Shown here piece after piece: positions 1 to 7,569 of a DNA stretch of 17,173 bases. The position numbers and the translations under genes were made by a program. Every line of letters starts with the position of its first letter. Position 1 is the first letter of the stretch. Under the pieces are notes generated by a model. It searched no databases and was not told the DNA's origin. It was given only the letters and a program-made list of their open reading frames with translations. This stretch comes from a virus (Duplodnaviria; Heunggongvirae; Uroviricota; Caudoviricetes), in IMG/VR virus record IMGVR_UViG_2675903324_000013; one strand, written 5' to 3'.

Positions 1-1230
1 ATGAGCAGAGCACTTAACAAACTGAGCGATACACAGCTGAGGAAAATCAACGGCACACCCGCCCAAAAAACAGCCTTTCTTAATGACGGTGGAAACCTGA
101 GCGTCAGGCATTCAACCAGTGGCCTTTTAACCTGGTATTTCACTTACAGGGCCGGAACGGGAAGGGGGGCACCACCGGAACGCATTAAGCTGGGAAATTA
201 TCCTGATCTGAGCCTGAAATCAGCCAGGGAAAAAGCCGCCCAGTGTCGCGCATGGCTGGCAGAGGGGAAAAATCCACGTCATGAAATGAATTACACCGTA
301 CAGGAAGCGTTAAAGCCGGTAACGGTTGGCGATGCGCTCACCTACTGGCTTGAGTCGTACGCAAAGGAAAACCGTGTGGATTATGACCCACTGAAAAAGC
401 GGCTAAATAATCACGTAATACAGCACATTGGCCCTATGCCGCTGGATAAATGCGAGCTACGGCACTGGCTGGCCTGTTTTGATCGGGTGGCAAAGAAAGC
501 CCCTGTTTCCGCCGGGTTCCTGCTACAGACATGCAAGCAGGCGCTTAAGTTCTGCAGGAAGCGGCGCTATGCAATCAGCAACGTTCTTGATGATATGAGT
601 GTGGCGGACGTTGGGAAAAAACCGGATATAAGTGAGCGTGTCTTAAGTAACAAAGAACTTGGCGAATTATTGCAGGCACTGGACAAAAAAATATTTTCCC
701 CTTACTACGTCGCACTAATCCGCCTCCTGATTGTTTTCGGATGCCGGACAGTAGAACTGAGGTTATCGGAGATCGGCGAGTGGGATTTTACCGAAATGCT
801 CTGGACCGTTCCGAAGGAGCACAGCAAAACGAAGGTAGCCATATTCCGGCCCATACCGGAAGCGATACTGCCGTTCGTCACGCAGCTGGTGGAGCAGAAC
901 AGGCACACGGGCTTATTGCTGGGGGAAGTGAAACAGGAAACCAGCGTATCGCAGTACGGCAGATTAGCGCACAGGAGGCTAAAACACCCTCAATGGTCAT
1001 TGCATGACATCCGGCGCACCTTTACAACCATGCTGAACGATTTAGGCGTTGATCCTCACGTCGTGGAGCAGCTTACAGGCCACCAGATGCCAGGAATGCA
1101 ACGCGTGTACAACCATTCCCGCTATATTGATGCGAAACGCAATGCGCTTGATATGTGGGTGGAGCGGTTGGAGATACTGGCGGGAACACATGAAAACGTA
1201 ACCACGCTACCAGTAACCAGAATAAAATAA
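1..1230 (+). CDS. int: Tyrosine recombinase / integrase, P4 (CP4-57) type
   Basis: 409-aa ORF starting at window base 1. C-terminal catalytic region carries the tyrosine-recombinase signature residues (…LHDIRRTFTT…, …GHQ…, …VYNHSRY…). Followed by an AlpA gene as in P4-like islands. Confidence 0.9.
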   Translation: MSRALNKLSDTQLRKINGTPAQKTAFLNDGGNLSVRHSTSGLLTWYFTYRAGTGRGAPPERIKLGNYPDLSLKSAREKAAQCRAWLAEGKNPRHEMNYTVQEALKPVTVGDALTYWLESYAKENRVDYDPLKKRLNNHVIQHIGPMPLDKCELRHWLACFDRVAKKAPVSAGFLLQTCKQALKFCRKRRYAISNVLDDMSVADVGKKPDISERVLSNKELGELLQALDKKIFSPYYVALIRLLIVFGCRTVELRLSEIGEWDFTEMLWTVPKEHSKTKVAIFRPIPEAILPFVTQLVEQNRHTGLLLGEVKQETSVSQYGRLAHRRLKHPQWSLHDIRRTFTTMLNDLGVDPHVVEQLTGHQMPGMQRVYNHSRYIDAKRNALDMWVERLEILAGTHENVTTLPVTRIK

Positions 1231-1247
1231 TTTTTTTCGTGTTTTTT

Positions 1248-1263
1248 CAGTATGCGCATACTG
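1248..1263. promoter_or_regulatory. 16-bp perfect palindrome CAGTATGCGCATACTG just downstream of int stop
   Basis: Reverse complement is identical to the sequence itself; lies in the int-alpA intergenic region. Confidence 0.35.
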
Positions 1264-1279
1264 GATAAGTGCACAGATA

Positions 1280-1319
1280 CAACGTGAAACAATGTGCAAC
1301 AACGTGACACAATCACGAA
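1280..1319. repeat. Four tandem 10-bp phased repeats (caacgtgaaa / caatgtgcaa / caacgtgaca / caatcacgaa)
   Basis: Directly visible with exact 10-bp periodicity between int and alpA; candidate binding array for a recombination-directionality factor or regulator. Confidence 0.5.
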
Positions 1320-1419
1320 CAAGAGGCCAAAAAGAATACAGATTTGTAAGTTGCTGATTTTTAATGCTCAGCTGGTTTTTTATACATTAGTGAATTACGC
1401 GTTAAAGCGTGCGAAAAAA

Positions 1420-1448
1420 GGCATAAAACAAGATTTTATGCCTTTGTA
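1420..1448 (+). terminator. Intrinsic terminator-like hairpin downstream of int
   Basis: 9-bp stem GGCATAAAA / TTTTATGCC with loop CAAGA, A-run before and T-rich tract after, so it could act in both directions. Confidence 0.5.
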
Positions 1449-1604
1449 TTAACATGAATTTAAATGATTTTATCCTGATTATTCCTCTTTCTGTAAACCA
1501 TGCGACACCAACATTTGCCAACTCTGAATCATCCTGACACAATCAGACACATCCCAACGCAATAGAACACGAAATAACTCTTTAAGAAACGAAAGGGGGC
1601 AATA

Positions 1605-1793
1605 GTGTTAAGCACTGATCGGTTTATACGTGAAAAAGAATGCGAAAAGCTAACAGGCCTTAGCCGCTCATGCCGCTACCGCCTGGAAAAGGCCGGACAA
1701 TTCCCATCACGTCGTAAACTTGGTGGGCGTTCTGTTGGCTGGTCTTTATCTGAGGTTTTGGCCTGGAAGGATAGCTGCAAGGCAGTTCACTAA
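1605..1793 (+). CDS. alpA: AlpA-family phage regulatory protein (small HTH activator / excisionase-like)
   Basis: GTG start 5 nt after a GGGGG Shine-Dalgarno; 62 aa with the AlpA pattern …LTGLSRS.RYRL…GQFP…KLGGRSVGW…EV..W. Confidence 0.85.
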   Translation: MLSTDRFIREKECEKLTGLSRSCRYRLEKAGQFPSRRKLGGRSVGWSLSEVLAWKDSCKAVH

Positions 1794-1937
1794 AAAGACT
1801 GGCGGCACACAGTCGCCACACATCCACTAATACAGAGATATAACTATGAAGATTGAATATGCGCCCGAACGTGGGCGGGGATTCGTTCGCCCTGGTGAAA
1901 CTGAAAAACAACAAAATTGGGGTTTTTCAGGCATAAA

Positions 1938-1968
1938 AAAAGCGGCCCCGATATGGAGCCGCCTTTCT
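1938..1968. terminator. Bidirectional terminator-like hairpin between alpA and the minus-strand switch genes
   Basis: A-run, stem AGCGGC / GCCGCC (one wobble), 11-12-nt loop, then T-rich sequence; on the minus strand the stem is followed by TTTTTTT. Confidence 0.45.
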
Positions 1969-2036
1969 GAACAATTAACCTGCTGCGCCTTATGTGTATG
2001 TGATCCCAAACATAAGCACGGGAATGATAGCCGCTA

Positions 2037-2240
2037 TCAGGCTGGTGGGCAATTACCTTGCTTGTTGGGGCCGTATTGTGCTGCCATTTTCATCCGTTCA
2101 GAACGTGAATATTTTTTTAGAAACTCATCAAGGACAAAAGCGCATGGAGCGAATCTTTCTGATTCATGCTCGAGCGCCATATTTTCGTGCTCTCTGTTCG
2201 TTTTTTGCGATGGTGTATTGGTTGATTCTTTATTGGTCAT
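2037..2240 (-). CDS. Hypothetical small protein, MTN… paralogue 1 (67 aa), possibly degenerate
   Basis: ORF whose start codon and first codons sit inside a 59-bp block conserved with the start of ORF 2698..2925 (both begin MTN); no clear Shine-Dalgarno; A-rich strand. Confidence 0.25.
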   Translation of the reverse strand: MTNKESTNTPSQKTNREHENMALEHESERFAPCAFVLDEFLKKYSRSERMKMAAQYGPNKQGNCPPA

Positions 2241-2293
2241 TGTGTGTACCTGTAAAGCAATGCGCCGGAGTTCCTCACGCCACGGCGCTGATG
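2235..2293. repeat. Conserved 59-bp block, copy 1 (ggtcat…ctgtaaagcaatgcgccg…cctcacgccacggcgctgatg)
   Basis: About 90% identical to 2920-2978; contains a 6-bp stem GCGCCG / CGGCGC with a 15-nt loop; spans the MTN start codon on the minus strand. Confidence 0.6.
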
Positions 2294-2297
2294 TTTT

Positions 2298-2402
2298 TTA
2301 TTCTTTGGGTTCAATACCGCGTTGCTGTAATTCTTTTCGGATTATTCGTTTTATCCAAGCTGCTAAAGAGTCATCACCGTCTTGTTGTTGTGCTTTTTCC
2401 AT
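2298..2402 (-). CDS. Very small ORF (34 aa, MEKAQQQDGDDSLAAWIKRIIRKELQQRGIEPKE); possible remnant of the C-terminal helix of an RHH-like repressor
   Basis: Occupies the same position relative to the conserved block as the RHH-like gene 2983..3162; weak C-terminal similarity (AAW/AAM…IKR…R); weak RBS. Confidence 0.15.
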   Translation of the reverse strand: MEKAQQQDGDDSLAAWIKRIIRKELQQRGIEPKE

Positions 2403-2465
2403 CTTTTCCCGTAAGTCAGGATCTAAACGGAACTGGAAAGGAGGATTACCACGCCTTTCATTTTT

Positions 2466-2520
2466 GTGTGTTGACACGTCAATTACACTCCATATAATGT
2501 GTTTATGTGTATATACACAT
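2466..2520 (+). promoter_or_regulatory. Near-consensus sigma70 promoter TTGACA (2471-2476), 16-bp spacer, TATAAT (2493-2498), flanked by GTGT-N4-ACAC operator-like sites
   Basis: Hexamers read directly. GTGTgttgACAC at 2466-2477 overlaps the -35; a 16-bp perfect palindrome ATGTGTATATACACAT at 2505-2520 overlaps the predicted transcription start. Confidence 0.5.
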
Positions 2521-2544
2521 TACACACAACTAGCACAAAAAACA

Positions 2545-2578
2545 ACGCCCCGCAGTGATGGGAACACATACGGGGCGT
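2545..2578 (-). terminator. Conserved stem-loop, copy 1: 8-bp GC-rich stem ACGCCCCG / CGGGGCGT with 18-nt loop; followed by a T-tract on the minus strand
   Basis: Homologous to 3293-3325 with one compensatory base-pair change in the stem and a near-identical loop (…GGAACACATA…). Confidence 0.4.
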
Positions 2579-2697
2579 CTAACCAAACCATTAATTGAGG
2601 TAACGATTATGGCTATAAAAGAGCATAGCTTACTCTTTATACACACACAAACGCCCCGGAAACGGAATAATCCGTTTCATAGTTCGGTTTTGTGTAC

Positions 2698-2925
2698 TCA
2701 TCCTGGCGGGCGATTCTTACGGGACTTTAGCCGCCGTGGGCAGCTTGCTAAAAATGCCTCCAACGCGAATAGTCCAGGTTTCATTTCTATCGGTATTAGT
2801 TGGATATTCAGAGGATTAGCCAGTTCGGCTTCAAGGCGAGCACAGGTTTCTAACTGCCTTTGCCGAATGATTTCATCTTCTTGCGTCTGCGTGTCTTGTA
2901 TTGGTGATAGTGTGTTGTTGGTCAT
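2698..2925 (-). CDS. Hypothetical small protein, MTN… paralogue 2 (75 aa)
   Basis: Start codon inside conserved block copy 2, directly downstream of the RHH-like gene on the same strand and in the same frame phase; helical-looking segment EDEIIRQRQLETCARLEAELAN. Confidence 0.35.
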   Translation of the reverse strand: MTNNTLSPIQDTQTQEDEIIRQRQLETCARLEAELANPLNIQLIPIEMKPGLFALEAFLASCPRRLKSRKNRPPG

Positions 2926-2978
2926 GGTACTGCCCTGTAAAGCAATGCGCCGTAGTACCTCACGCCACGGCGCTGATG
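2920..2978. repeat. Conserved 59-bp block, copy 2
   Basis: Same stem GCGCCG / CGGCGC (2947-2952 / 2968-2973); differs from copy 1 mainly in the loop and flanks. Confidence 0.6.
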
Positions 2979-2982
2979 GTGA

Positions 2983-3162
2983 TTATTCTGATTCTTTGGT
3001 CTTGCGGCGCTGGCGGCGTTTGATTTCGCCGCGCATGGCTGCGTTTATAAACTGCCCCGTGCTTTCACCTTCTTCTTTCACGTTCTCCATGCCTTCAATA
3101 ATTTCATGGGCAATACGTGCAGTTACAGATTGTGATTTTGCATTCTTTGGACCCGTTGCCAT
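2983..3162 (-). CDS. Putative ribbon-helix-helix (CopG/Arc/MetJ-like) DNA-binding protein; candidate switch repressor
   Basis: ATG at 3162 preceded by GAGGGG with 6-nt spacing. 59 aa with an N-terminal basic beta-strand (SQSVTARIA) followed by two helices (HEIIEGMENVKEEG / TGQFINAAMRGEI) and a basic tail. Operator-like boxes lie immediately upstream. The six-frame track start at 3201 lacks an RBS. Confidence 0.4.
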   Translation of the reverse strand: MATGPKNAKSQSVTARIAHEIIEGMENVKEEGESTGQFINAAMRGEIKRRQRRKTKESE

Positions 3163-3183
3163 GTTTAACCCCTCATGTTTTTG

Positions 3184-3264
3184 GTGTAAGACAATATACA
3201 CGAAAAAAAAATATTTTGAAGGGTTGACGTGTAAGACACCGTTATTTTACATTGTGTCTTACAC
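3184..3264. promoter_or_regulatory. Divergent promoter-operator region: three GTGTaagACAC boxes and back-to-back promoters
   Basis: Boxes at 3184-3193, 3229-3239 and inverted at 3254-3264. Leftward promoter: -35 TTCAAA / 16 bp / -10 TATATT (complement of 3193-3220). Rightward promoter: -35 TTGACG (3224-3229) with a weak -10 (TTACAT or TACATT) about 17-18 bp downstream. Confidence 0.45.
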
Positions 3265-3292
3265 CTTGTTAATGCAAGGTACAGAAAAGACG

Positions 3293-3325
3293 AAACCCCG
3301 CAGTGCTGGAACACATACGGGGCTT
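3293..3325 (-). terminator. Conserved stem-loop, copy 2: stem AAACCCCG / CGGGGCTT with 17-nt loop; T-rich tract on the minus strand
   Basis: Homologue of 2545-2578; lies in the 5' leader of the rightward operon and upstream of the leftward promoter. Confidence 0.4.
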
Positions 3326-3354
3326 CTAACCAACAACGTAAACTAGGAGCCGTT

Positions 3355-3552
3355 ATGGTTGCTGTAAATCATATACCACACCTTGTACACACACAAACTG
3401 CCTTTGTGTGGCGTTTTCTGGCACTGAGTGCCGGAGAATCTCAAATCATCCACGTCACCGCCTGGACGGAACGCGAAGCGCGTAGCCGTTGCCCGTCCGG
3501 TTGTGTTGCTGTATTTGCCGCCCGTATTCGTCAGGAGGTGCGCCATGATTAA
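3355..3552 (+). CDS. Hypothetical protein (65 aa), first gene of the rightward small-ORF operon
   Basis: AGGAG 6 nt upstream of the ATG; stop overlaps the next start (ATGATTAA); the first ~15 codons are conserved with a degenerate copy at 2609. Confidence 0.4.
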   Translation: MVAVNHIPHLVHTQTAFVWRFLALSAGESQIIHVTAWTEREARSRCPSGCVAVFAARIRQEVRHD

Positions 3553-3757
3553 TCTGTCACTTACTGACCTTAACCGCATTCAGTTTCGTGAGAAATTCAC
3601 AGGGCAGCTACTGGTCAATGTGGATAAAGGTCGCGTGGTGTGTAATTACTACTTACCAGATGAAGCAATTGTCGCCACAAGGGAATCATTACAGGAAATC
3701 ACAAAACGTGCCGGAATGATTAACACGAATATTCAGGGGATGCTTTATGCACAATAA
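3545..3757 (+). CDS. Hypothetical protein (70 aa)
   Basis: ATG at 3545 preceded by AGGAGG; the six-frame track ORF 3428..3757 has an upstream start without an RBS. Confidence 0.45.
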   Translation: MINLSLTDLNRIQFREKFTGQLLVNVDKGRVVCNYYLPDEAIVATRESLQEITKRAGMINTNIQGMLYAQ

Positions 3758-3986
3758 AACCACACCGGACGCAGCCGCCGAAGCCATCAAAACGCTGATG
3801 CACGCGCTGATTGATATTTCTGTTATCGCGGACAGGGCACATAAGCACGCCACCAGCGAAACAGAATATGCCGGGGCTTTCGTTCCTCACTCACTGGCTG
3901 TTATGCAATTTAGTGCTGATATGGCACTGAATGAGGCTAAAACCATCCTGATTACTGATTGTGAAAATGGGGGGGGTTATGCGTGA
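3747..3986 (+). CDS. Hypothetical protein (79 aa)
   Basis: ORF with GGGGA RBS; short overlap with its neighbours, consistent with an operon. Confidence 0.5.
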   Translation: MHNKTTPDAAAEAIKTLMHALIDISVIADRAHKHATSETEYAGAFVPHSLAVMQFSADMALNEAKTILITDCENGGGYA

Positions 3987-4212
3987 TGATCGTTTTAATT
4001 CCCTGAAACAAGAATTTTCCGGCGTTCCTGATGATGCGGCTGATGCGCTTTCGTCAATGCCAGAACTTATTAGAGCGGCTTTTTTCTTACTTTCCACGAA
4101 AGAATATAAATCAACGGGACTTGATGTACTGAATATCGCCGCCGATTATGCGGAATATGTGGCAGAGGCGCGTTACAGAAGAAAATTTCCTGAGGATGTA
4201 AGCCATGCGTGA
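3979..4212 (+). CDS. Hypothetical protein (about 77 aa; start uncertain, alternative GTG at 3961)
   Basis: ATGCGTGA overlap with the upstream stop; G-run RBS. Confidence 0.4.
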   Translation: MRDDRFNSLKQEFSGVPDDAADALSSMPELIRAAFFLLSTKEYKSTGLDVLNIAADYAEYVAEARYRRKFPEDVSHA

Positions 4213-4438
4213 TATTTATCTTGAAACAATAGACCGCGCATCACTTGCACTTTCTCACAGTGAAAACATGATGGAAATATTGCGGATGTGCCTTGAATCC
4301 TTTGGCGATAATGAACGTAATGCAAAAAAAACGCGGATTATTACATCATTAATAACGCTTCTTGAGCCTGTAATAAATGAGTTGCAGGAAATAGAGACAT
4401 TGCACGACAGATATAACGAACAGCACACCGGAGAATAA
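4205..4438 (+). CDS. Hypothetical protein (77 aa)
   Basis: Same ATGCGTGAT start context as the previous gene (coupled translation). Confidence 0.5.
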   Translation: MRDIYLETIDRASLALSHSENMMEILRMCLESFGDNERNAKKTRIITSLITLLEPVINELQEIETLHDRYNEQHTGE

Positions 4439-4443
4439 AAATA

Positions 4444-4743
4444 ATGAAACTTAAATATTCTGGCTTAACTGCCAGTGGCAACACTCACCCTAAATTTACG
4501 CGCGGTGATATTTACCGCGACCAGTACGGCGGCACGGTAATGATTAAGGGCGTGGCGGGACGGTGCGTAACTTACCGCCGTGAAGGTTACGAATATGATT
4601 GCGTGATGCCTGTTTATCAGTTCCGGCGTGATTTTTCTCTGGTACAGACCGCGCCGCATAACGTGCCCACCAGCAACGCCAGGGCACGGGCAAACATCCA
4701 GAAGCTGAAAACCATGATTAACGGATTCAGGGGCAAGAAATGA
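4444..4743 (+). CDS. Hypothetical protein (99 aa)
   Basis: GGAGAA RBS; stop overlaps the rep start (ATGA). Confidence 0.5.
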   Translation: MKLKYSGLTASGNTHPKFTRGDIYRDQYGGTVMIKGVAGRCVTYRREGYEYDCVMPVYQFRRDFSLVQTAPHNVPTSNARARANIQKLKTMINGFRGKK

Positions 4744-6137
4744 AAAGCGCACCGAACTTAAAAAAACAGCCTTACGACAAGATGACCGAAGTCATCATTT
4801 TTGCGGGTAGTGATGCGTGGGCACATGCGAAACAGTGGCAGGAACAGGACGGGCGACTGGCTGGCGATAATGTGCCTCCCATTGTGCTGGCTGATGATCA
4901 ACTGGATGAACTGGCAGACCTGAGAATCATCGACGAGGGGCGCTATTGTGTCCGGCTGTACAAGGCAGGCCACATCAGGCCATCAAATATTAATGCCATT
5001 GCGCACAAGCTGGCGGCGGCGGGCGTAACTGATGCGAATTATTACCCCGAAGGGATACACAGCCAGAAGCGGGAGAACTGGCGCGAATATCTGGAACGGG
5101 AGCGGGGGAAAAAGCCAGGGGAAGAACACCACCAGCGAAAAACCACGCTACCGATGAGCGTTGGATCTGCCGGATATGACACGCAATTAGATTACGTGGT
5201 AAAGGGGATTATTCCGGCATCGTCGCTATGCAGCATATACGGGGCAAGCGGTTCCTATAAATCATTCCTTGCGGGTTCGTGGGCGTGTCACGTTTCCACG
5301 GGCCGCCAGTGGGGAGGCCGCAGGGTGGCGCATGGCGCTGTTCTCTATGTGGTTGGTGAAGGCGGTATCGGCGTTCCGCGTCGTGTAAAAGCCTGGGAGG
5401 TTGTGCACGGTGAGCAGGTGAAAAATCTGTATCTGGTAAACCGTCCAGTTTTTCCGGCTGTCCCGCTTGATGTTGATGAACTGGTTATCGCTGCCCGTCA
5501 GGTGGAGCGGGAAACGGGTAAACCTGTACGCATGATTATTCTTGATACTCTGGCGCGTTGCTTTGGTGGCAATGATGAAAATGATTCCCGTGATATGGGG
5601 GCGTTTATCCGTGGGTGTGACGAGCTTAAACGGCGCACAGGGGCCACGGTGCTGGTGGTTCACCATTCCGGCAAGGATGAGACGAAAGGCGCGCGCGGTT
5701 CCAGTGCATTTCGTGCTTCGCTGGATGCTGAATACCGGATACGCAGGGAGGACGCAGGAAGCGAAGCGCTGGTTATCTCATGCACCAAAATGAAGGACGC
5801 GGAGGAACTCAAAGAGGCTGCCTATGATTTGCGGGTGGTGGAGCTTTTTACCGACGCTGACGGGGAGTTAATCACGTCGCTGGTGGTGGTGGATAAGCCG
5901 CGCCCTCCCGTTGAACTGGAGCGCATCGAGGAGGCAGGCAACAAGACGGAAAACCATACCGCACTATGGGGGTGCATCCGTTCACGCACACAGAACGGCG
6001 ACAAGTGCACGATCCCGCTGTTACGTGATGACATGAAACGGCTTGGGTATGACGTGAAAAATATGCGGCGATGGTTAGCCAAACTGGAAAAAGACGCCGT
6101 GATTTACATTGATGGTGATGATGTAGGACCACTGTAA
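4740..6137 (+). CDS. Replication protein: RepA-like / AAA_25-type RecA-fold ATPase with C-terminal presumed DNA-binding region
   Basis: P-loop-like motif GASGSYKS (non-canonical), Walker-B-like RMIILDTLAR, and LVVHHSGKDETKGARGSSAF typical of RepA/AAA_25 helicase-loader proteins; immediately followed by an iteron array. Confidence 0.65.
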   Translation: MKSAPNLKKQPYDKMTEVIIFAGSDAWAHAKQWQEQDGRLAGDNVPPIVLADDQLDELADLRIIDEGRYCVRLYKAGHIRPSNINAIAHKLAAAGVTDANYYPEGIHSQKRENWREYLERERGKKPGEEHHQRKTTLPMSVGSAGYDTQLDYVVKGIIPASSLCSIYGASGSYKSFLAGSWACHVSTGRQWGGRRVAHGAVLYVVGEGGIGVPRRVKAWEVVHGEQVKNLYLVNRPVFPAVPLDVDELVIAARQVERETGKPVRMIILDTLARCFGGNDENDSRDMGAFIRGCDELKRRTGATVLVVHHSGKDETKGARGSSAFRASLDAEYRIRREDAGSEALVISCTKMKDAEELKEAAYDLRVVELFTDADGELITSLVVVDKPRPPVELERIEEAGNKTENHTALWGCIRSRTQNGDKCTIPLLRDDMKRLGYDVKNMRRWLAKLEKDAVIYIDGDDVGPL

Positions 6138-7332: not shown

Positions 7333-7569
7333 ATGGTACATGACCGCATAGCGGAGGAACTCGAGGCAAAAGGCTTTTACCGGAGGGCGTCGGCGCGATG
7401 GGGTGAAGTCATGCAACTGGTGGAGACAGACAAGGAACGGCATCAGGTTACGATGCGACGGCTGGAATGTTCCAGGAAGGCACAGAGGCCACCGGAGAAC
7501 TACGCAGACCTGAGAAATGCAGTAAATCGCACTTATGCAGACATGGGGCTGAGCAAATTAGCTGAGTAG
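7333..7569 (+). CDS. Small regulator-like protein (78 aa), possibly PerC-family
   Basis: GAGGGGG RBS; basic helical protein with the motif DRIAEELEAKGFYRRASARWGEVM, which I recall as PerC-like. Assignment is from memory, not searched. Confidence 0.4.
   Translation: MVHDRIAEELEAKGFYRRASARWGEVMQLVETDKERHQVTMRRLECSRKAQRPPENYADLRNAVNRTYADMGLSKLAE

Follow-up and report, generated by a model that had tools for sequence, protein, structure and literature searches.

Positions 3355-4743 of the viral DNA analysed here (17,173 nucleotides, IMG/VR record IMGVR_UViG_2675903324_000013, Caudoviricetes; the whole stretch is called the window) hold six small open reading frames (ORFs) ahead of a replication gene, rep. 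Judged by its sequence, the window is a capsid-forming phage-inducible chromosomal island (cf-PICI) of the EcCIEDL933/CP-933C/Sp7 type, a satellite of Escherichia coli located at roxA-phoQ. Here we propose, as a reading that we hold to be reasonably probable, that this block makes up the half of the island's early (replication) operon nearest its promoter, that the operon is gated by a protein of the Icd/Kil family encoded by ORF1, and that ORFs 2-5 are accessory genes within it.

The six ORFs are genes of a chained block

All six ORFs lie on the plus strand: ORF1 (3355-3552, 65 amino acids (aa)), ORF2 (3545-3757, 70 aa), ORF3 (3747-3986, 79 aa), ORF4 (3979-4212, 77 aa), ORF5 (4205-4438, 77 aa) and ORF6 (4444-4743, 99 aa), followed on the same strand by rep (4740-6137). 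An earlier note on this DNA had described six translationally coupled ORFs of 65-99 aa, all of unknown function, running from a switch to the replicase of a satellite. The ORFs are present as described, and the picture of a chained early operon between a divergent switch and the replicase of a phage satellite still fits; the extent of the unknown was overstated, since ORF1 and ORF6 belong to known families. The junctions that the note had listed are also found, namely ATGATTAA at ORF1/ORF2 (an overlap of 8 nt), ATGCGTGA at both ORF3/ORF4 and ORF4/ORF5 (8 nt each), and ATGA where the ORF6 stop meets the rep start. It had passed over ATGCACAATAA at ORF2/ORF3, an overlap of 11 nt, and ORF5 and ORF6 do not overlap, being separated by 5 nt (TAA aaata ATG). 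A purine run resembling a Shine-Dalgarno (SD) sequence stands 5-10 nt 5' of all seven starts (ORF1-ORF6 and rep), and a consensus scan found no plus-strand promoter-like site inside 3355-4743.

The six small ORFs are real genes. RefSeq/PGAP calls the same genes in islands of 97-99% identity, and the region is matched in 1501 of 5426 complete E. coli genomes; the block or parts of it are thus carried by about 28% of them, with most of the genes still annotated as "hypothetical". Ratios of nonsynonymous to synonymous polymorphism (pN/pS) were pooled against 4-39 distinct alleles per ORF. The loci gathered comprised 80 with a Rep homologue, taken from other Enterobacterales, and about 80 in IMG/VR that were found via ORF5 and ORF2. 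The annotated frames of ORF1-ORF6 gave pooled values of 0.30-0.38 (0.31, 0.33, 0.33, 0.30 and 0.38 for ORF1 to ORF5, respectively) with no stop codon across alleles; Rep, for comparison, gave 0.03-0.11. Shifted frames and the antisense ORFs at 3343-3579 and 4465-4752 mostly gave 1.08-3.0, with stops in many alleles, the exception among shifted frames being the +1 frame of ORF2, which gave 0.39 yet has stops in 6 of 8 alleles. The frames are kept open in related islands, and the loss of conservation that the earlier note had offered as a sign against them was not seen.

ORF1 is a member of the Icd/Kil family

By sequence, ORF1 is a member of the Icd/Kil family. On the NCBIfam model NF033153 (Icd-like, cut-off 25) it scores 64.7 bits, which overturns the description of this ORF as having no recognisable motif; on the same model P1 Icd, taken from immI of P1, scores 52.6 bits and Kil of P4 (65 aa) 76.1 bits. 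The three proteins align with a common F-W-R-F ... A-T-E-x-E-A-R ... F-A-A-R pattern, and ORF1 is 97% identical to ECs1577 of E. coli Sakai. Its position is likewise that of an Icd/Kil ORF, as it is the first ORF past the switch promoter and shares an 8-nt overlap with the next. The NF033153 match, taken together with parallels in P1, P4 and Gifsy-1, places ORF1 in a family of "gate" ORFs that head chained early operons. By analogy with those systems, ORF1 is most likely a translational gate and a cell-division inhibitor or toxic peptide.

PHROG labels its Icd families phrog_1743 and phrog_6196 "transcriptional repressor". This label probably traces to an obsolete P4 coding sequence annotated as "cI gene product" (L163, 8168-8584). 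That coding sequence is the eta/kil ORF overlapping the CI RNA, and the label would then be a propagated annotation error.

ORF6 is an orthologue of RgdR and stands beside a Rep domain of one type

ORF6 matches DUF4222 (PF13973) at 82.1 bits over residues 16-68 (cut-off 27), and ECs1581 of Sakai does so at 82.0 bits; the two proteins are 77.8% identical over residues 1-99 (E 1e-56). DUF4222 is connected to RgdR through PMC10877973 and PMC3378721. RgdR is ECs1581, a 99-aa protein of OI-51 encoded directly upstream of a primase gene, between ycdF and phoQ, and its orthologues were recognised by a full-length match of more than 77% over 99 aa (PMC3378721). On this comparison ORF6 is an RgdR orthologue, and the absence of motif and function once ascribed to it gives way to a counterpart with published phenotypes: RgdR activates the LEE1 promoter, part of the enterocyte effacement locus (LEE), and type III secretion (T3S), represses motility and binds DNA non-specifically (PMC3378721). 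Its homologues include C1493 (CFT073), which is active like ECs1581, and ECED1_1787 (ED1a), which is inactive despite 94% similarity (PMC3378721), so that activity of the ORF6 allele is not to be assumed.

The residues tied to T3S activation, RGD at 20-22 and K35 (PMC3378721), are retained in ORF6, as are Q27, R61, A10 and R45. We considered RGD as a conserved functional signature of the DUF4222 family and rejected it, as residue 20 varies among the RgdR homologues inspected (CGD, NGD, PGD). An AlphaFold2 (AF2) model of ORF6, a protein with an isoelectric point (pI) of 10.2, has a predicted local distance difference test score (pLDDT) of 75, rising to about 90 in the core, and consists of a five-stranded barrel, a short helix and a basic C-terminal helix. 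The core models as a Tudor/SH3-like barrel, and the structure matches of ORF6 in BFVD were only uncharacterised DUF1653-like proteins.

The Rep protein of the window has an N-terminal domain without a Pfam family (residues 1-125, window 4740-5114) followed by a RepA/AAA_25 helicase domain. The N-terminal domain is common to replication proteins of the RepA-helicase type and of the primase type at 38-100% identity, and that of the window shares 68% identity with its N-terminal counterpart in the Sakai primase ECs1582. A DUF4222 gene stands immediately upstream in all 80 of the 80 loci with this domain, 37 of which have a primase-type C-terminus such as that of ECs1582. Another 78 loci, in which the RepA/AAA_25 helicase domain follows a different N-terminus, have no DUF4222 gene; where these were examined, a 122-aa ORF takes up the overlapped position. 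This distribution supports, at the family level, a functional pairing of RgdR with the Rep N-terminal domain.

Downstream of the gene for the single-stranded DNA-binding protein (SSB), at 7333-7569, is a gene for a regulator of the PerC/PchE family. With RgdR, the island thus carries homologues of two LEE-regulator families, as does Sp7 of E. coli Sakai (pchE is ECs1588).

A divergent switch and a conserved leader hairpin precede the block

Upstream of the block and on the minus strand, a 59-aa gene of the YlcI/YnfO family (2983-3162; NCBIfam NF041551, 64.7 bits, cut-off 30) encodes a candidate switch repressor. The head-to-head pair formed by this gene (minus strand) and icd (plus strand) recurs in islands of other genera. 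Between the two, an 81-bp switch (3184-3264) holds three exact copies of GTGTAAGACA, at 3184-3193 and 3229-3238 on the plus strand and at 3255-3264 on the minus strand. These copies bracket a plus-strand promoter-like site (TTGACG-18-TACATT, 3224-3253) and overlap minus-strand promoter-like sites (3272-3244 and 3220-3193) that lead into the YlcI/YnfO gene, an arrangement consistent with a repressor role for the YlcI/YnfO protein and an operator function for GTGTAAGACA.

Between the switch and ORF1 lies a plus-strand leader hairpin of 10 bp (3295-3323), 30-60 nt before the icd start. In the motif that contains it (3293-3357), the invariant CTCTAACCA comes next, and then a stretch with an SD sequence that reaches the ORF1 ATG. 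The hairpin is present in the single-sequence minimum-free-energy fold and is supported by covariation: in 11 sequences from about 10 genera, compensatory changes occur in 7 of its 10 pairs and 92.7% of cells are paired, none of 500 shuffles reaches the observed pairing, and slid controls collapse. A covariance model of the motif (R1) found 43 leader copies in 86 sources, ranging from Xenorhabdus to Escherichia and including Sakai Sp7, all of them on the rep strand and upstream of rep. The same model found no copy in P4 or P1, and no Rfam family matches the hairpin. The hairpin may affect mRNA stability, mark a site of processing or bind a protein; alternatively, it may be an inverted repeat that works at the DNA level.

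Terminator-like hairpins with T-rich tails were seen at 3390-3410, in the 5' end of ORF1, and at 4781-4796, in the 5' end of rep; the overall count of terminator-like sites is no higher than chance. The first of these was considered as a conserved attenuator and rejected, being allele-specific and not seen in other genera.

A tandem copy of the switch lies at 2037-2611. It consists of two minus-strand genes (2037-2240, and a YlcI-like gene at 2298-2477), a perfect sigma-70 consensus (TTGACA-16-TATAAT, 2471-2498), a copy of the leader motif (2545-2611, 80.4 bits) and, at 2609, an icd-like start (MAIKEHSLLFIHTQT...). This start is truncated and runs into the minus-strand genes of the next module.

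ORFs 2-5 behave as mosaic cassettes

Searches of Pfam (E<=1) and NCBIfam placed ORFs 2-5 in no family, and their only relatives are PHROG families without function: phrog_340 for ORF2, phrog_5146 and the N-terminal half of phrog_2512 for ORF3, phrog_24341 for ORF4 and phrog_2196 for ORF5, which belongs to the family of Sakai ECs1580. The Pfam scan gave no match to the Derepression family or to the Ant/AntA/Bro/KilA families; P4 epsilon scores 170 bits on Derepression (PF25738). None of ORFs 1-6 matches PADLOC-DB at E<=0.1, and sequence and profile searches of the PDB returned no relative of ORFs 2-5 and nothing better than E ~0.02 for any of the six. For these four genes, then, the earlier note's finding of no recognisable motif stands. 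Helices are predicted for ORFs 3-5, whose products are acidic (pI 4.8-5.3); that of ORF2 is near neutral, and its AF2 model (from a 23-sequence alignment) has a pLDDT of 51.6, too low for a fold search.

Sequence comparison identifies ORFs 2-5 as mosaic cassettes found only in Escherichia and without function by homology. ORF2 has only 28 clusters, all from Escherichia, and for ORF4 a search of 1.84 billion proteins gave no more than 27 representative clusters. Clustering at 90% identity gives 470 clusters for ORF5; the 120 listed come without exception from E. coli or uncultured Escherichia. None of the four occurs in the 80 loci with a Rep homologue from other genera, which have unrelated small ORFs at this position. 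Gene order is fixed between islands and the identity of each ORF varies independently (for example, 50% for ORF3 and 100% for ORF4); ORF2 is optional, hybrid genes occur, and ORF3 has conserved ends around a variable middle. Of 99 identity breakpoints, 51 are no more than 30 nt from a gene junction, about twice the 25.3 +/- 4.4 expected. Given the independent identities and the breakpoints at junctions, ORFs 2-5 appear to act as cassettes swapped at conserved boundaries.

These proteins repeatedly end in (Q)(G/E)V(R/H/N)H(A/G/D), a tail that translates the shared SD-ATG-stop junction. Similar tails (...EVRHD, ...GVRHA, ...DVSHA, ...GVNHG) end many ORFs of this zone in several genera, and in the window they are encoded at 3538-3552 and 4198-4212. 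Paralogy of ORF3, ORF4 and ORF5, which are of the same size and joined by ATGCGTGA junctions (ORF4 and ORF5 both start MRD), was considered and rejected: iterated hidden Markov model searches keep them as separate families, and hhalign of the family profiles gave no pair above 30% probability.

The ORF3/ORF4 junction carries a G8 homopolymer on the plus strand (3969-3976) that doubles as the SD sequence of ORF4. Its length varies from G6 to G11 among relatives, with G7 in 23, G8 in 34, G9 in 19, G10 in 4 and G11 in 2 of 82 IMG/VR matches, and more than one length was found in 9 of 58 contexts with identical flanks. With G8 or G11, ORF3 and ORF4 are separate and coupled; with G7 or G10 they form an in-frame fusion of about 155 aa (phrog_2512, P0270), and with G9 or G6 there is a 7-aa extension. 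This variation may reflect slipped-strand hypervariability, as in a contingency switch, or homopolymer sequencing error.

What might such cassettes do? One suggestion, which we think unlikely, is that ORFs 2-5, and perhaps ORF1, are antirepressors, derepression or interference factors directed at the helper, and that their shuffling tracks helper-phage diversity. The earlier note had reasoned in a similar way from position, and the position does fit: a derepression or antirepressor gene comes right after an Icd-like or leader ORF in P4 (epsilon), P1 (Ant1) and Gifsy-1 (AnrP), an analogy that extends to the AntA/AntB or Bro genes beside Icd in Enterobacter cf-PICIs and PICIs (PMC13612085; PMC10111431). 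ORFs 2-5 themselves match no such family by sequence. The small size, acidity and high polymorphism of ORFs 3-5, the 470 clusters of ORF5 and the recombination of all four as cassettes are what would be expected of helper effectors; against this, their pN/pS of 0.30-0.38 indicates purifying rather than diversifying selection overall, EcCIEDL933 is reported to be induced by its helper and not to block helper reproduction (10.1101/2022.09.08.507074), and the model of ORF2 is too poor for fold comparison.

A wider version, quite improbable in our view, joins several features of the block: ORFs 2-5 would be an array of small, mostly acidic effectors exchanged among islands at conserved SD-ATG-stop junctions, combined with the leader RNA and with a slippage-prone toggle at the poly-G tract that switches ORF3 and ORF4 from separate products to a fused one and back; RgdR, as a Tudor-like factor, would dock onto the Rep N-terminal domain or RNA polymerase. 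If this were true, the block would be a contingency-type control or specificity module setting which helper phages or hosts the satellite exploits, and the virulence effects of RgdR would be by-products.

Improbable to a further degree is the suggestion that ORFs 2-5 are translated spacers without protein function, which merely hold ribosomes on the mRNA, prevent Rho-dependent polarity and relay initiation from the regulated ORF1 to rgdR-rep. The replacement of these ORFs by unrelated small ones in other genera, the optional status of ORF2 and the lack of a detectable family or solved relative are all in keeping with spacers, and conservation is highest (95-98% mean identity) across the ORF3/4 and ORF5/6 junctions and the coding sequence next to them. 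Yet the amino-acid sequences are under purifying selection and other frames, apart from the +1 frame of ORF2, have higher pN/pS (1.08-2.0), conserved residues are kept in each family among alleles down to 25-30% identity, and four separate reading frames would be needless in a pure spacer.

Least probable of all is that the block is mainly a host-directed virulence or physiology module in which RgdR and the PerC/PchE-like gene reprogramme the uninduced host (LEE, motility, curli): deletion of ecs1581 or OI-51 in uninduced enterohaemorrhagic E. coli does reduce T3S, adherence and sheep colonisation, RgdR homologues act in uropathogenic E. coli (PMC3378721) and PICI homologues of PerC, whose family has its gene here at 7333-7569, can affect LEE (PMC11773190), but RgdR homologues are common in LEE-negative E. 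coli (PMC3378721), ORF6 is locked to rep by ATGA and to one type of Rep N-terminal domain by synteny, the counterpart operon in EDL933 is silent in LB medium and on under prophage-inducing conditions, and the LEE-linked RGD is not conserved in the homologues inspected.

A proposed course of expression, and what weighs against it

Based on these observations, we suggest that the block is best viewed as the Icd-gated first half of the early operon. Transcription would start at the promoter within the divergent switch, among its three GTGTAAGACA sites and facing the YlcI/YnfO gene, and the transcript would carry the conserved leader hairpin. Ribosomes would load on ORF1 and pass by termination-reinitiation through the overlapping junctions to rep; such chaining would cause the seven products to be made together and keep the mRNA covered by ribosomes. 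ORF1 would act as the translational gate of the operon, a gate that in sibling islands would be placed under isrK/C4 antisense-RNA immunity. The native job of RgdR may be to assist the adjoining Pri/Rep protein or to act on transcription of the induced island, in which case the published changes in LEE and motility would arise in the host as side effects. ORFs 2-5 are most likely accessory modulators of helper or host proteins.

Several points weigh against this account. Promoter and operator consensus scans gave no more sites than chance overall, and coupling between ORF5 and ORF6 would be weaker than elsewhere because a 5-nt gap replaces the overlap. None of ORFs 2-5 is essential to the satellite cycle, since all are absent in other genera and ORF2 is optional. 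The published study of cf-PICIs examined alpA and the packaging genes, not these ORFs (10.1101/2022.09.08.507074). As to RgdR and Rep, adjacency alone could explain the co-occurrence of DUF4222 with the Rep N-terminal domain, in loci that were partly gathered via neighbouring ORFs and so are not an independent sample. In at least 13 of these loci, an RgdR of at least 96% identity stands beside a Rep N-terminal domain of 65% identity or less; co-evolution of the two at the level of alleles was looked for and rejected, as the alleles recombine freely.

The island and its context

The window is 99% identical over its full length to an E. coli island, L002, whose annotation reads int, helix-turn-helix (AlpA), YlcI/YnfO, Icd-like, four hypotheticals, DUF4222, RepA helicase, SSB and PerC, followed by major capsid, prohead protease, portal, head closure, connector, HNH, small terminase (TerS) and large terminase (TerL), and then phoQ. 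Both this annotation and the ORF layout of the window agree with the published architecture of cf-PICIs: about 15 kb, with int, alpA, rep and their own capsid, protease, portal and connector genes, HNH, TerS and TerL present, and tail and lysis genes absent (10.1101/2022.09.08.507074). Helper- and AlpA-dependent induction, and transfer in the island's own small capsids with helper tails, have been described only for EcCIEDL933 (10.1101/2022.09.08.507074); from size, strain and gene content we infer that CP-933C is EcCIEDL933. The six-gene block is also present in L001, a classical PICI at tqsA whose packaging module differs.

The region had no match in 50,697 phage records by megablast or blastn. 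ORF1 and ORF6 had one tblastn match each in the same records, both to small, satellite-sized ones, which argues that neither is an ordinary phage gene. An int-alpA RNA (Rfam RF02996, 49.8 bits) was seen in one related IMG/VR island (L159, 777-845); in the window it was not detected at the gathering threshold.

RNA immunity is absent here and present in a sibling

In L002, an "ash family" pseudogene located between the switch and icd contains isrK (66 bits) and C4 (77.6 bits) RNAs. They lie in a segment of about 366 bp (L002 4932-5300, corresponding to window 3432-3440) that is missing from the window and from L001, and its flanks in L002 are two diverged copies of the icd 5' end; the L002 and window forms are thus linked by unequal recombination, in one direction or the other. 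Rfam scans of the window at the gathering score, and of positions 1200-4800 at E<=10, found no C4, isrK or c4-a1b1. The C4 target CACACTGAGGAGG, which in L002 covers the icd SD sequence, is absent from the window even with 2 mismatches allowed. Most relatives also lack C4: blastn found it in 9-12 of 79 loci, and Rfam in 2 of another 16.

An RNA-immunity reading was considered for the window island and rejected, there being no C4, no isrK and no credible Rfam family; it holds for L002. With these RNAs and their target absent, control in the window would rest on the protein switch. RNA control of the C4/CI type marks a regulatory system, not the Icd/Kil protein family.

Comparison with known systems

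Among the closest described elements is Sp7/OI-51/CP-933C, at the same roxA/ycfD-phoQ site. Its int, icd, SSB-to-TerL module and flank are 88-97% identical in DNA to those of the window (96% in the packaging module), and ECs1577-ECs1582 follow the same order of icd-like gene, small ORFs, 99-aa DUF4222 gene, ATGA overlap and Pri/Rep. Window ORF5 is a distant homologue of ECs1580; Sp7 has no counterparts of ORFs 2-4, and the unrelated ECs1578 and ECs1579 are found there instead. The replication enzyme differs, being a 465-aa RepA/AAA_25 helicase in the window and a 710-aa primase-type protein in Sp7, and so does the switch region, with no DNA match in Sp7 for window 2334-3319.

The left operon of P4 runs kil (65 aa), an 8-nt overlap, epsilon, a second 8-nt overlap, orf151, orf106 and alpha; like the window, it has a first ORF of the Icd/Kil family and chained small genes before a primase/helicase, and the AlpA-like gene of the window is 47% identical to P4 Vis/orf88. 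Forti et al. reportedly found in 1999 that kil translation prevents Rho-dependent termination at timm of P4 and that kil overexpression kills. Unlike P4, the window has no CI/C4 RNA or target, and no sid, delta or psu is listed in the annotation of L002, an island type that makes its own capsid and does not remodel that of a helper. The gene set of a P4-like satellite (sid, delta, psu, epsilon and an alpha-type primase) is thus not that of the window. ORFs 1-6 and rep had no match beyond chance to P4 epsilon, orf151, orf106 (DUF5375) or alpha. A weak blastp match had raised orf151 as a DUF4222 protein, a candidate rejected for want of a Pfam match.

In P1 immI, the order is c4 RNA, icd, an ATGA overlap and ant1 (ant1/ant2), so that an Icd-family ORF heads the operon as in the window; P1 icd is an inhibitor of cell division, and expression of ant apparently depends on it (P1 record; PMC8198154). 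The C4 RNA of L002 occupies the place equivalent to P1 c4. Unlike P1, the window lacks C4 and the a/b target sites, its downstream genes are by homology no antirepressors, and its operon ends in a replicase. In Gifsy-1 (isrK-orf45-anrP), translation of the leader orf45 is needed, through coupling, for the downstream antirepressor anrP (PMC4825925); the isrK homologue found in L002 has no equivalent in the window.

A published model of Gram-negative PICIs places a "dynamic (Bro) zone" between their integration and replication zones (PMC10111431). The zone described here resembles it in lying between alpA and the replication genes, in being highly mosaic and in having C4/isrK in some members. 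It differs in that no gene with a Bro-network domain is present in this zone of the window, relatives such as L002 keeping only the "ash family" pseudogene.

RgdR, known only as a virulence regulator of enterohaemorrhagic E. coli, is placed by this analysis in a satellite replication operon, which gives a testable idea of its native role and offers an explanation for how satellite carriage could alter LEE and motility. Work on how Gram-negative PICIs switch on has targets here in the four ORFs still uncharacterised, in the poly-G junction and in the covarying hairpin. The families of ORF1 and ORF6 were known already, and the block is arranged as a mosaic variant both of the EcCIEDL933/CP-933C early region and of the Icd-gated design of P4 and P1. 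The current picture of satellites is unchanged, with detail added: an Icd gate of the P1/P4 type occurs in cf-PICIs both with and without a C4/isrK layer of RNA immunity.

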